DNA of 8,962 nucleotides from a plasmid, in sequence record NZ_CP136965.1. One strand, given 5' to 3'. Of this stretch, positions 1,487-7,053 are shown piece after piece; the stretch's first letter is position 1; every line of letters starts with the position of its first letter. The notes beneath the pieces are model-generated. The model was given only the letters and a program-made list of their open reading frames with translations. It searched no databases and was not told where the DNA came from. The translations under genes and the position numbers were made by a program.

Positions 1487-1504
1487 ATGCTCTTCTTTAT
1501 TTTG
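1472..1504. terminator. Bidirectional rho-independent terminator shared by convergent genes
   Basis: Stem AAGAAGAGCA (1473..1482) pairs with TGCTCTTCTT (1488..1497) around loop TTAAA. A T-run follows on the plus strand (TATTTT) and an A-run precedes it, which gives a U-run on the minus strand. It sits between the peptide operon (plus) and the secreted-protein gene (minus). Confidence 0.65.
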
Positions 1505-1973
1505 GTGTAGCGGTAAAATGGCTTACTACATAATATTTATCAGTTCCTTTTCTCAGGTATCTGTAATGTGCGGTTAATTTAAAATTTTTAGCACTTGATT
1601 TTTTCAAAGTATTATTAAGTTGATCAGAAGAATGAGGCAAAGTACTTGCAATTATAGTGGAGGCTACTCCTGTTGCTATAGATGCATAAGGAGATAAAGG
1701 AATAGCTATTAATGTTCCACCGAGAGATATACTAACGTCTCTTGTTATTTTATTACCAGTAGCTTGCTTAGCGATTTTATTTAATTCTGCTCTAGTGACG
1801 GTTGTAGATGTAGTGAAACCCTTTGTACCATATTTTTTATATAGTTTTGGAGATGCCCAAATTGTTTCACCAGCTGCTTTGGCTTTATTATGCTGGTTAG
1901 TCTCTGGAACAATCATTAATAGAACTGCAAAAACAAGAAAAACAGATAATGTTTTTTTGAAATAGGTATTCAT
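1497..1973 (-). CDS. 158-aa protein with Sec-type signal peptide and an internal hydrophobic segment; hypothetical secreted or membrane-anchored protein
   Basis: The ORF track gives 1497..2015. I place the start at the internal Met (MNTYFKK...) at 1973 because SD TAGGGAGGC (plus 1981..1989) lies 7 nt upstream of it. The track's upstream ATG has no SD and lies upstream of the predicted -10. Signal peptide: n-region MNTYFKK, h-region TLSVFLVFAVLLMIV, AKA-A cleavage motif. The internal stretch ISLGGTLIAIPLSPYASIATGVASTIIASTL may be a transmembrane segment. The C-terminal tail is basic. I do not recognise the family. Confidence 0.7.
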   Translation of the reverse strand: MNTYFKKTLSVFLVFAVLLMIVPETNQHNKAKAAGETIWASPKLYKKYGTKGFTTSTTVTRAELNKIAKQATGNKITRDVSISLGGTLIAIPLSPYASIATGVASTIIASTLPHSSDQLNNTLKKSSAKNFKLTAHYRYLRKGTDKYYVVSHFTATPK

Positions 1974-2013
1974 AGATAACGCCTCCCTAATATTTTGAAT
2001 TTTCTTACATTTC

Positions 2014-2042
2014 ATTATATTATCATAGTATATTATTAAAAA
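2014..2042 (-). promoter_or_regulatory. Putative promoter of the secreted-protein gene
   Basis: On the minus strand, a weak -35 TTTTTA (plus 2037..2042), a 17-nt spacer and TATAAT (plus 2014..2019). This gives a 5' UTR of about 33 nt carrying SD GGGAGG. Confidence 0.35.
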
Positions 2043-2248: not shown

Positions 2249-2277
2249 TGTTAGAAATTAATAGATCATGTTATAAT
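2249..2277 (+). promoter_or_regulatory. Strong extended -10 promoter (TGtTATAAT) for the candidate sRNA
   Basis: TG at 2269..2270, then T, then TATAAT at 2272..2277. A -35-like GTTAGA/TTAGAA lies at 2250..2256. Confidence 0.55.
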
Positions 2278-2283
2278 GTAATT

Positions 2284-2350
2284 AACAAATTTAGAAGTTC
2301 TATCATAGAACACACAAACCCCATCAGTCTGCATACTGATGGGGTTTTTT
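2284..2350 (+). ncRNA. Candidate small RNA of about 67 nt with an intrinsic terminator
   Basis: The predicted TSS is about 7 nt after TATAAT. The body contains the inverted repeat GTTCTAT-C-ATAGAAC. It ends in a strong terminator: stem AACCCCATCAGT (2317..2328), loop CTGCAT, stem ACTGATGGGGTT (2335..2346), then TTTT (2347..2350). No ORF with an SD lies inside it. Confidence 0.45.
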
Positions 2351-2446
2351 GTGCCTAAATTTAGGGCAACTGTTTACTTGTTGTGATGCGTATCTAGGTA
2401 ACGCTCTATCACTAACAAGATGACACCGACAATAATTGGTGCCACG

Positions 2447-2494
2447 AACAAATTTAGAAGTTCGTAAACCATAGAACACACCCCCTTTCGGGGC
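2447..2494. repeat. Degenerate paralogous copy of the sRNA body (B element)
   Basis: AACAAATTTAGAAGTTC is identical at 2284..2300 and 2447..2463. It is followed in both by CATAGAACACAC and a C4...G4 hairpin; here the hairpin is CCCC-TTTC-GGGG. On the minus strand this reads CCCC-GAAA-GGGG, a GNRA tetraloop, followed by a U-rich stretch. B has no promoter and no T-tail. Confidence 0.6.
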
Positions 2495-2572
2495 AGTTGC
2501 CATGTATGAGTATATCGGTTAAATATATACTACATCAATGCTTTATAGCCATTTAACTGATAACTATGCATG

Positions 2573-2646
2573 ATTTAAAAGTTATAAGCCTTTAAACTGC
2601 TTATAGCGACCTTAGATTTAGTTATTTAAGTCTAAAATAGCTAAAG
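2573..2646. repeat. Dispersed repeat B-prime, homologous to 823..876
   Basis: Shares the 17-mer ATTTAAAAGTTATAAGC and flanking similarity with A-prime. It contains the small hairpin ATAAGC-N9-GCTTAT. Confidence 0.7.
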
Positions 2647-2665
2647 AATCTGATTTAGTAGAAGT

Positions 2666-3094
2666 TTATAAATCATCAATTGTTATTCTTTGAAATCTTT
2701 TATCTTCCCTTTTTTCTACTAGTTCTTCTTTTTGTATTTTATTGTCGTTCATTAATTTATTTCTGTAATGTCTATCAATAGCTTCTTTACCTTTTATGGC
2801 TCTTAAAGAATCTCCATAATATAAATTAGAAACTTTAAGTTCCTGACGTTCCATCATGGAATAAGTAAATTGTATGTTCAGTTCTAATAAAGATTTAAGG
2901 TGCTTTACTTCATCAACAATTTGTTTATTTGTATAGTTATCTTCATTTTCTAAATCTAAAAGAGTTAAAATCGCATGTCTTAAAAACTCTGACCTTGTAA
3001 TGTATTTGTGTTTATTTTTCAGAATATGGATATCTAATTCCTTTAACAGATCTGTATCAATATCAAAATTTAATCGTTTAATTTCTTTAGTCAT
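2666..3094 (-). CDS. 142-aa ribbon-helix-helix (CopG/Arc/MetJ-like) DNA-binding protein with an extended charged C-terminal domain
   Basis: N-terminal KRLNFDIDTDLLKELDIHILKNKHKYITRSEFLRHAILTLL fits a beta-strand / helix A / turn / helix B RHH fold. SD GGGAGAGAG (plus 3100..3108) lies 5 nt upstream. The start ATG overlaps the upstream gene's stop by 8 nt (ATGACTAA), which indicates translational coupling. Family called from the motif only. Confidence 0.75.
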   Translation of the reverse strand: MTKEIKRLNFDIDTDLLKELDIHILKNKHKYITRSEFLRHAILTLLDLENEDNYTNKQIVDEVKHLKSLLELNIQFTYSMMERQELKVSNLYYGDSLRAIKGKEAIDRHYRNKLMNDNKIQKEELVEKREDKRFQRITIDDL

Positions 3095-3371
3095 TATTAC
3101 TCTCTCCCATTCCTAAAAGTTCTTTAAGCATATTTGCATGTATTTCATGCCAAATGTTTAATTCATTAATAGCTTTATTTTGTTTGTTCAACATTCTACT
3201 GACATCTGTTAGTACTCTTCTTTGTTCTATTTTTTGAGAATTACTATATTCTTCAGTGATATCTTCTCGAATTAAATTTAGTATATATTCATTCATGGAT
3301 ACGTCTTTTTTTTTAGCAATTTCTGAAAGATATGAATGTAATTCTGATGGTAAACGTAGTAGAAAATTCAT
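3087..3371 (-). CDS. 94-aa ribbon-helix-helix protein with a C-terminal coiled-coil-like helix
   Basis: N-terminal FLLRLPSELHSYLSEIAKKKDVSMNEYILNLIRED is a classic RHH motif. The C-terminal half (QKIEQRRVLTDVSRMLNKQNKAINELNIWHEIHANMLKELL) is helical with heptad-like spacing. SD AGGGGAGA lies just upstream. It is the first gene of a two-gene operon and sits directly downstream of the palindrome array. Confidence 0.75.
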   Translation of the reverse strand: MNFLLRLPSELHSYLSEIAKKKDVSMNEYILNLIREDITEEYSNSQKIEQRRVLTDVSRMLNKQNKAINELNIWHEIHANMLKELLGMGESNND

Positions 3372-4280: not shown

Positions 4281-4319
4281 CACCTTATAAACATTGATAT
4301 GATAACCTTTATAAGACCT

Positions 4320-4413
4320 TATGAGAACAAAATGTCGGTTTATGAGAACAAAATGTCGGTTTATGAGAACAAAATGTCGGTTTATGAGAACAAAATGTCG
4401 GTTTATGAGAACG
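4320..4413 (+). repeat. Origin iterons: 4 x 21-bp TATGAGAACAAAATGTCGGTT plus a 10-bp partial
   Basis: Perfect direct repeats at 4320, 4341, 4362 and 4383, with partial TATGAGAACG at 4404..4413. The 21-bp period is two helical turns. The array sits immediately upstream of rep. Confidence 0.9.
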
Positions 4414-6729: not shown

Positions 6730-6758
6730 TGTTAGAAATTAATAGATCATGTTATAAT
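6730..6758 (+). promoter_or_regulatory. Extended -10 promoter for the candidate sRNA (copy 2)
   Basis: Copy of 2249..2277. Confidence 0.55.
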
Positions 6759-6764
6759 GTAATT

Positions 6765-6831
6765 AACAAATTTAGAAGTTCTATCATAGAACACACAAAC
6801 CCCATCAGTCTGCATACTGATGGGGTTTTTT
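6765..6831 (+). ncRNA. Candidate small RNA (copy 2)
   Basis: Copy of 2284..2350. Confidence 0.45.
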
Positions 6832-6927
6832 GTGCCTAAATTTAGGGCAACTGTTTACTTGTTGTGATGCGTATCTAGGTAACGCTCTATCACTAACAAG
6901 ATGACACCGACAATAATTGGTGCCACG

Positions 6928-6975
6928 AACAAATTTAGAAGTTCGTAAACCATAGAACACACCCCCTTTCGGGGC
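6928..6975. repeat. B element (copy 2)
   Basis: Copy of 2447..2494. Confidence 0.6.
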
Positions 6976-7053
6976 AGTTGCCATGTATGAGTATATCGGT
7001 TAAATATATACTACATCAATGCTTTATAGCCATTTAACTGATAACTATGCATG

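Follow-up and report, generated by a model that had tools for sequence, protein, structure and literature searches.

A predicted par(pAD1)-type Fst toxin–antitoxin cassette on a 4481-bp Rep_3 plasmid

The par locus of pAD1 from Enterococcus faecalis, which specifies RNA I (encoding the toxin Fst) and RNA II, is the founding Gram-positive type I toxin–antitoxin (TA) and post-segregational killing system. The 8962-bp stretch of plasmid DNA analysed here (sequence record NZ_CP136965.1; hereafter referred to as the window) contains a candidate small RNA (sRNA) at positions 2284–2350 and, farther downstream, a second element that repeats its beginning. An earlier note on this DNA had taken the second element for a degenerate copy of the sRNA gene and had suggested that the sRNA controls a neighbouring ribbon-helix-helix (RHH) operon. 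Here we propose, with a probability of about 0.88, that window positions 2269–2538 form a complete par(pAD1)-type Fst type I TA cassette on a 4481-bp Rep_3 plasmid, in which the sRNA would be the antitoxin RNA II. The defining features of par loci have been set out previously (PMC7472228 and PMC4147584), and all five given in PMC7472228 are found in the window: convergent promoters, a bidirectional terminator, direct repeats, a 5′ stem-loop (5′-SL) and an upstream helix (5′-UH). The locus is an unannotated member of a well-known family and reveals no new mechanism; its transcripts, its toxicity and its stabilisation of the plasmid are inferred by analogy.

For comparison, we used seven loci from five genera: those of the window, Nosocomiicoccus (N. 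ampullae plasmid pDSM19163_1, NZ_CP079111.1, 2.6 kb), two Enterococcus plasmids, Lactococcus/Vagococcus, Aerococcus and a metagenomic type (L012). All seven have the same layout, a near-invariant RNA I leader and a TGnTATAAT-type RNA II promoter. In a broad MAFFT alignment of RNA I, the 5′ arm and the short 3′ region were placed wrongly for the window clade, and the alignment was left out of formal pair counts in favour of per-locus duplex checks.

On the plus strand, all the sequence features that the earlier note had described were found at the positions it gave. Its TGtTATAAT promoter is present at 2269–2277 as TGTTATAAT, and a TGnTATAAT-like element lies at a constant distance from the RNA II 5′ tail in all seven loci. 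The terminator that was said to end a ~67-nucleotide (nt) RNA starting at 2284 was found as the hairpin at 2316–2347 (AAACCCCATCAGT-CTGCAT-ACTGATGGGGTTT; inverted-repeat arms of 16 nt each, 94% complementary), with T6 on the plus strand at 2345–2350. On the minus strand, the same hairpin was scored as terminator-like in our scan, and UUUGUGUGUU comes after it. RNA II is composed of a 32-nt 5′ tail, containing one copy each of direct repeat a (DRa; 2284–2300) and direct repeat b (DRb; 2304–2315), and the terminator hairpin; a length of ~65–75 nt has been reported for RNA II (PMC2887945). A 69-nt RNA II folds with z = −6.0 (0 of 200 shuffles fold as well) and contains a GUUCUA-UCA-UAGAAC hairpin, which is the internal inverted repeat noticed before, and the description of the sRNA as non-coding and bounded by a promoter and a terminator stands as well. 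The promoter region (2245–2282) is itself a 20-bp tandem duplication (ATCATGTTAGAAATTAAT and ATCATGTTATAATGTAAT, 83%), in which the −10 element of the upstream copy has decayed (TGTTAGAAA); the duplication is not found in the Nosocomiicoccus plasmid.

The second element had been described as lacking a promoter, which is correct for the plus strand and incorrect for the minus strand, where a sigma-70-type promoter (2538–2509) lies immediately upstream of it. This promoter is identical in the Nosocomiicoccus plasmid, and the spacing TATACT-CAT(T/A)CAT-GGCAAC is common to the window and plasmids pWZ1668 and pCRL291.1. From position 2501, the minus strand reads GGCAACUG-CCCC-GAAA-GGGG-G-UGUGUUCU-AUG. 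The predicted 190-nt RNA I folds with z = −6.6, and the 5′-UH, the 5′-SL and the terminator all form. The 5′-UH pairs GGCAACUG (2501–2494) with CAGUUGCC (2372–2365) over 8 bp in the minimum free energy (MFE) and centroid folds, in the Rfam alignment and in the alifold consensus. It is present in 7 of 7 loci and is retained in the RNAalifold consensus of four close alleles, and the locus of an E. faecalis plasmid referred to here as pAD1-like carries a compensatory change in it, from A-U to G-C. The 5′-SL, which pairs four of the five G residues of the Shine–Dalgarno (SD) sequence, is likewise part of the four-allele consensus and is kept in every one of the seven loci, with CCUC/GGAGG as the version of the pAD1-like locus.

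Two further structural elements of RNA I were observed. A hairpin, UGCCCUAAAUUUAGGCA (2352–2368), uses the UGCC of the 5′-UH 3′ arm, so that the two structures are mutually exclusive; a counterpart can form in the alleles of Nosocomiicoccus and of metagenomic plasmid L025, and the exclusion could represent a conformational switch. DRa is itself part of a hairpin in the RNA I fold, and the 10-nt loop of that hairpin includes CUAA, a YUNR-type motif.

The open reading frame (ORF) that follows the RNA I leader, 32 codons on the minus strand, had been overlooked by the earlier note; it had appeared in the ORF list as a 35-amino-acid (aa) form starting with GTG, and we chose the AUG start. The predicted peptide has a hydrophobic core, LLNLFVAPIIVGVILLVI (Kyte–Doolittle 2.9), a PIIVG (PxxxG) motif and a polar, charged tail, ERYLDTHHNK. 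Members of the Fst/Ldr superfamily are peptides of ~30 aa in which a hydrophobic transmembrane helix bears P/D/S/TxxxG and is followed by a conserved Trp and a charged C-terminus. The predicted peptide aligns without gaps with FstpAD1 and six further Fst toxins, either annotated in public entries or predicted by us at par-like loci, with AP..V and L invariant and PxxxG present. Its only two credible profile matches are to Pfam Fst_toxin (E = 4e-4) and the NCBIfam Fst family (E = 4e-3). A tblastn search of plasmids with the peptide returned only the Nosocomiicoccus copy (E = 4e-6) and two weak matches, and an exact-sequence look-up of the 32-aa peptide returned no called gene.

The direct repeats connect the two RNAs. 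As had been noted before, the first 17 nt of RNA II (2284–2300) are repeated exactly at 2447–2463; moreover, CATAGAACACAC (2304–2315) is repeated exactly at 2470–2481, and CCCC-TTTC-GGGG then occupies 2482–2493. The repetition goes beyond chance: the longest exact direct repeat in 2200–2700 is 17 nt, compared with a maximum of 15 nt (none of 17) in 1000 dinucleotide shuffles, and the 17-mer with up to three mismatches has only two sites per plasmid unit, as against 0.25 expected. The 32-nt RNA II tail is predicted to form 31 bp with nucleotides 20–56 of RNA I, comprising the SD tail, the AUG and codons 4–9, with a duplex energy of −38.8 kcal/mol, versus −11.6 ± 2.6 kcal/mol for shuffled tails (minimum −22.9), and the terminator hairpins of RNA II and RNA I are complementary by construction. 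Within the plasmid, the tail has just two strong targets, its own antisense and the 5′ end of RNA I; the next best site, at −20.7 kcal/mol, lies at the edge of the shuffle range, and no strong complementary site was found elsewhere in the plasmid, including near rep. Of the antisense control proposed earlier, the pairing blocks (17 nt and 12 nt) remain, and the target changes from the 3′ end of the RHH mRNA to the 5′ end of the toxin mRNA; the supposed degenerate sRNA gene is better read as the antitoxin target site inside that mRNA.

In each of the seven loci, DRa and DRb are locus-specific, and both copies match within the locus. In a seven-locus matrix, cognate duplexes ranged from −33.6 to −42.8 kcal/mol, with a non-cognate mean of −14.2 kcal/mol. 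The coordinates of the cassette are compiled in Table 1.

Table 1. Predicted features of the par-type cassette in the window
Feature	Position	Strand	Basis or remark
RNA II extended −10 promoter, TGTTATAAT	2269..2277	+	sequence; −35 weak
RNA II, predicted ~67-nt antitoxin sRNA	2284..2350	+	promoter/terminator-bounded; repeats; fold
RNA I, predicted ~190-nt toxin mRNA	2312..2501	−	Rfam RefB11, fold
Bidirectional intrinsic terminator, common to RNA II and RNA I	2316..2347	both	13-bp stem, 6-nt loop
5′-UH, 3′ arm CAGUUGCC	2365..2372	−	begins 1 nt past toxin stop codon
Toxin ORF MVYELLNLFVAPIIVGVILLVIERYLDTHHNK, 32 aa + stop	2374..2472	−	AUG 8 nt after SD AAAGGGGGUG
DRa target in RNA I, GAACUUCUAAAUUUGUU	2447..2463	−	toxin codons 4–9
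DRb target in RNA I, GUGUGUUCUAUG	2470..2481	−	last SD G, spacer, AUG
5′-SL, CCCC-GAAA-GGGG	2482..2493	−	sequesters SD GGGGG (2485–2481)
5′-UH, 5′ arm GGCAACUG	2494..2501	−	MFE and centroid folds, Rfam alignment
RNA I promoter TTGATG-18 nt-TATACT, sigma-70-type	2509..2538	−	promoter scan; places start at G2501
Whole module, second copy	6750..7019	both	first copy +4481

By analogy with pAD1 par, the module may work as follows. Two convergent promoters would give RNA I (minus strand, ~190 nt), the mRNA of a 32-aa Fst-family membrane peptide, and RNA II (plus strand, ~67 nt). The two RNAs would converge on one bidirectional terminator and cross the two direct repeats in opposite directions, so that the RNA II tail would be complementary to the SD tail, the AUG and codons 4–9. 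In RNA I, the GAAA-capped hairpin would hide the SD sequence, and the 8-bp helix would tie the extreme 5′ end to the sequence past the stop codon. RNA II would bind RNA I and block ribosome loading in a stable, silent complex, as in pAD1 par (PMC7472228 and PMC4147584). As in that system, RNA II would be expected to decay faster than RNA I; upon plasmid loss it would not be replenished, the toxin would be translated and growth would stop. Such post-segregational killing would stabilise the plasmid.

How firmly the locus can be assigned to the family by profile scores depends on what the profiles represent. Rfam RefB11 (RF02848) aligns end to end with 2501–2345 on the minus strand (39.9 bits; E = 3e-5 for the window and 1e-6 locally). 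We established the identity of RefB11 and RefA9 (RF02844) by scanning loci annotated as ‘type I toxin-antitoxin system Fst family toxin’. RefB11 scores 102 bits on Lactococcus lactis pCRL291.1, 87 on the Aerococcus tenax plasmid, 80 on E. faecalis pWZ1668, 53.3 on the pAD1-like RNA I and 30.9 on the Nosocomiicoccus RNA I; it matches the toxin mRNAs of annotated Fst loci and therefore models par RNA I. RefA9 scores 84 bits on the convergent short RNA II of the pAD1-like locus and therefore models pAD1-type RNA II.

Several observations weigh against the assignment. The RefB11 score of the window is below the gathering threshold of 54 bits, and the toxin scores are below the cut-offs of both Pfam PF13955 (20.6 versus 36 bits) and NCBIfam NF033608 (17 versus 26 bits). 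RNA II has no Rfam match at all, even at E ≤ 10. In the toxin, the Trp that is conserved in the Fst family is replaced by another aromatic residue, Tyr, which the annotated Aerococcus toxin has as well. The U-tract past the terminator is weak on the strand of RNA I (UUUGUGUGUU). The YUNR U-turn motif is absent from the RNA I terminator loop AUGCAG and likewise from the RNA II loop CUGCAU, and it is present in the terminator loop of 6 of 9 compared loci. Finally, all functional claims for this plasmid rest on analogy.

Some of these points lose force on inspection. The ‘pAD1-like’ plasmid carries a toxin that equals the 33-aa FstpAD1 peptide at 32 of 33 residues, the difference being the GUG start. 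FstpAD1 also falls below the Pfam cut-off of 36 bits, at 22.8 bits, the annotated pCRL291.1 toxin scores 24.2 bits, and the pAD1-like RNA I falls short of the RefB11 threshold (53.3 versus 54 bits). Founding members thus miss the cut-offs too, so that the thresholds are non-discriminating for such short sequences. In a local search of 2230–2560 at E ≤ 10, RNA II found no credible Rfam family (SpF66, NsiR1, ncr1175 and similar matches were rejected as terminator-driven noise), and RefA9 did not match the plus-strand sRNA; the latter is expected because RNA II is filled by allele-specific DR sequences. The YUNR U-turn nucleates pairing in pAD1, through a kissing complex, and some homologues lack the motif (PMC7472228), and it is therefore not defining for par membership. 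We file the locus as a predicted par-type Fst system by its architecture rather than by profile scores. The terminator loop also varies by itself: metagenomic plasmids L022 and L024 differ from window 2329–2334 in having the 6-nt loop inverted (CUGCAU, not AUGCAG, on the RNA I strand) in otherwise identical cassettes, a hairpin-loop flip inside a perfectly palindromic stem that yields YUNR in neither orientation.

Among the alternatives, one accepts the par module and adds read-through from the RHH operon into RNA I, such that 5′-extended toxin transcripts would bind or titrate RNA II and couple the two modules. In such transcripts the toxin ORF would be accompanied by a buried 5′-UH and would compete for RNA II, and RHH expression would set the toxin/antitoxin balance. 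We consider this unlikely. The region 2502–2670 on the minus strand contains no terminator-like site or significantly stable structure (z = −1.9), and conservation of the 2502–2653 spacer is 96–100% among plasmids with different par alleles, rep genes and cargo, but these points are purely permissive. Moreover, the spacer is also present in the Nosocomiicoccus plasmid, which has no RHH operon, and the second par copy of L022 has a different upstream flank.

The reading of the earlier note, in which the sRNA acts in trans on the 3′ end of an RHH mRNA terminated at the GAAA hairpin (2482–2493) and thereby controls the RHH module, appears very improbable. The RHH operon does lie on the strand of the target site and ends at 2666, and RHH transcripts could physically reach the target because no canonical terminator lies between 2666 and 2540. 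However, the target is located directly downstream of its own promoter and covers the SD sequence, the AUG and the first codons of the Fst-like ORF. The GAAA hairpin corresponds to the SD-sequestering 5′-SL, which is conserved in Fst loci that have unrelated upstream genes and no upstream RHH operon, and the sequence after it, once described as U-rich, is GUGUGUUCUAUGG and not a U-tract. In addition, the Nosocomiicoccus plasmid has the cassette but no RHH genes, and L022 has a second copy by rep.

That the repeats are protein-binding sites or inert relics of a duplication, with no RNA–RNA pairing, is less probable still. They are plain direct repeats at the DNA level, and identity alone cannot separate constraint on DNA from constraint on RNA. 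Yet they fall exactly in the 5′ tail of a promoter- and terminator-bounded RNA and over the translation start of a convergent ORF in seven loci from five genera, and their sequences differ between loci and match within each. Furthermore, no gene for a candidate binding protein lies in the cassette, Rep is the only protein encoded by the Nosocomiicoccus plasmid, and DRa/DRb-mediated pairing has been demonstrated experimentally for pAD1 (PMC7472228 and PMC4147584). The binding-site or relic option that had been left open before was rejected. We give almost no credence to the sRNA being a copy-number countertranscript of the pIP501, pT181 or ColE1 type that targets the rep mRNA or a primer. Its small size, strong promoter and terminator, together with its presence on a small plasmid, would suit that role, but Rep is an iteron-type Rep_3 initiator, the sRNA lies ~1.5 kb downstream of rep on the same strand, the complementarity of its tail elsewhere in the unit is no better than −20.7 kcal/mol, and no complementarity to the rep mRNA leader or a replication primer was found, so the copy-control reading was rejected.

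The par-type cassette of the window can be followed through its closest relatives, the alleles of Nosocomiicoccus pDSM19163_1, of metagenomic plasmids L025, L026 and L028, and of L022 and L024. Their toxins are 66–78% identical, and they have in common the leader as well as the conserved flank that lies upstream of the RNA I promoter; they differ in their allele-specific DRa/DRb and terminator-stem sequences, in which changes are mirrored. pDSM19163_1 is 84% identical to window 2264–2653 at the DNA level; its cassette lies directly after rep, without RHH genes, and the homology ends at 2653, 13 nt before the RHH stop codon. The PLSDB gene table for the RefSeq record of pDSM19163_1 lists rep only, although such a table can be incomplete. 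At positions 128–525 of that record, an Fst-like toxin, MMFHILSLFVAPIVVGVILLFIERYLNTYNDKKK, and both RNAs are unannotated. The identical 142-aa RHH protein led to further plasmids, which have one of two alleles: that of the window or a third one (toxin MLYEFLTLFLAPIIVGVILLFIERYLNTHDNK), the latter on L025, L026 and L028. A scan of genome contigs with the conserved leader motif found one locus, in Vagococcus bubulae, identical to the pCRL291.1 type.

Whenever a DR differs among the three close alleles, the change is mirrored in both of its copies, and cross-allele duplexes are predicted at −15 to −24 kcal/mol, compared with −32 to −39 kcal/mol for cognate pairs. DRa and DRb are known to be poorly conserved, and pAD1 RNA II does not protect against the chromosomal paralogue (PMC7472228); the weak cross-allele duplexes fit both observations. 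L022 and L024 (~4.4 kb) each have two par modules in the same orientation (in L022, at 590–830 and 1900–2170), with the window allele downstream of the RHH operon and a Nosocomiicoccus-like allele by rep that has an unrelated upstream flank. The DR sequences of the two modules differ, giving weak predicted cross-pairing. Given the presence of the cassette in the RHH-less Nosocomiicoccus plasmid and of a second cassette by rep in L022 and L024, the module is autonomous. In L025, L026 and L028, the switch from the window allele to the third allele starts right after the invariant leader GGCAACUGCCCCGAAAGGGGGUGU (window 2482). This pattern suggests that recombination at the conserved RNA I leader swaps the part comprising repeat, toxin and terminator, together with adjacent cargo. 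We consider it more likely that DRa and DRb are diversifying ‘specificity alleles’ exchanged at the invariant RNA I leader than that the module is coupled to the RHH operon; if so, such alleles would let a single 4.4-kb plasmid, such as L022 or L024, hold two orthogonal par modules. The close alleles with mirrored DRa/DRb changes, along with the two-module plasmids, provide a natural series for the evolution of antitoxin-RNA specificity.

The practical value of recognizing the module lies in correct annotation, as the 32-codon toxin gene and the antitoxin RNA are missed by gene callers. On the metagenomic contigs, mostly no gene is called at the toxin position, and without a toxin call the locus reads as an orphan sRNA plus a puzzling repeat. 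Once recognized, the module offers an explanation of how cryptic plasmids of 2.6–4.5 kb in Staphylococcaceae-like hosts can be stably kept.

A comparison with known systems places the predicted module closest in kind to pAD1 par, with which it shares convergent promoters, a bidirectional terminator, DRa/DRb over the toxin start and a plasmid location, as well as an SD-hiding 5′-SL and a 5′-UH that caps the 5′ end (PMC7472228). In both, the toxin measures ~33 aa and combines a transmembrane helix containing PxxxG with a charged tail, and the antitoxin RNA is about 65 nt long. By contrast, the window toxin is 39% identical to that of pAD1, starts with AUG rather than GUG and has Tyr where pAD1 has Val (the family mostly has Trp); the DR sequences are unrelated, the RNA I terminator loop lacks YUNR, and the host is a 4.5-kb Rep_3 replicon, not a large pheromone plasmid. 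The spacer between the 5′-UH and the terminator is shorter in the window than in the pAD1-like locus, with an RNA I of ~190 nt compared with an equivalent stretch of ~215 nt; pAD1 RNA I is ~230 nt (PMC7472228).

The par-like loci of E. faecalis pWZ1668, L. lactis pCRL291.1 and A. tenax share with the window the layout and a near-identical RNA I leader, including the −10 element (TATACT-CATNCAT-GGCAACUGCCCCGAAAGGGGGUG), and the Aerococcus and window toxins both have a ...RYLD motif. Their toxins are 28–41% identical to that of the window, their RefB11 scores are 80–102 bits versus 39.9, and the hairpin between the 5′-UH and the terminator is different. SprA1/SprA1AS (PepA1) and other staphylococcal Fst-like systems are likewise members of the Fst/Ldr family, with a convergent antisense RNA that overlaps the 3′ end and acts on the 5′ translation start. 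The staphylococcal toxins contain a Cys, in PxxxGC (PMC7472228), but none is present in the window toxin, which has PIIVGV; moreover, the staphylococcal systems are chromosomal or on pathogenicity islands, with the antitoxin in large excess. The hok/sok system of R1 is similarly a plasmid-borne type I TA and post-segregational killing system with a small membrane peptide and an unstable antisense RNA. However, its toxin comes from an unrelated family, Sok overlaps in cis with the 5′ leader (mok), and control relies on hok mRNA being processed at its 3′ end and refolded (PMC7472228); hok/sok has neither DRa/DRb repeats nor a shared terminator.

The window consists of the 4481-bp plasmid unit repeated twice, head to tail, with two mismatches between the copies, at unit positions 910 and 4112 (910 versus 5391 and 4112 versus 8593 in the window). 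A real plasmid dimer, a mixed population and a circular-assembly artefact are candidate causes of the duplication. The unit is a small iteron-type plasmid with a Rep_3 initiator at 1–780 (Pfam Rep3_N/Rep3_C) and perfect 21-bp iterons (4.5 copies) at 4319–4412. Immediately after the rep stop codon lies a 74-nt copy (787–860) of the upstream flank of the RNA I promoter (2537–2610), 72% identical to it and preceded by a perfect 20-nt palindrome at 785–804. The copy at 787–860 resembles a scar left by a par cassette that was lost or relocated, because par is found next to rep at this place in the Nosocomiicoccus plasmid, L022 and L024.

The RHH operon (2666–3371, minus strand) encodes a 94-aa HicB/Arc-like RHH protein (Pfam HicB, E = 3e-7) and, overlapping it, the 142-aa protein, whose N terminus gives no more than a weak RHH signal (RHH_1, E = 0.1; NCBIfam aCcr1, E = 1e-5, below the cut-off). 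Identical copies of the latter were seen on at least 23 small contigs, which come from many samples, and copy control, partition and type II TA are candidate roles. The 150-bp spacer between the RHH stop codon and the RNA I start (2502–2653) shows 96% identity to its counterpart in the Nosocomiicoccus plasmid and 100% identity to those in L021–L028, and the plasmids that share it differ in rep (about 70–87% identity), par allele and cargo. It is the most conserved non-coding stretch across these plasmids and is missing from the second L022 par copy. Among PLSDB plasmids, spacer positions 2525–2665 matched only the Nosocomiicoccus plasmid. The product of the unit's cargo gene (1497–2015, minus strand) is a 172-aa protein that has a hydrophobic segment at its N terminus and matches nothing in Pfam or NCBIfam, and sister plasmids have unrelated ORFs of 190 aa or 194 aa in its place. 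Between the cargo gene and a convergent 59-aa ORF, a 37-nt inverted repeat (97%) at 1467–1503 is probably a bidirectional terminator.

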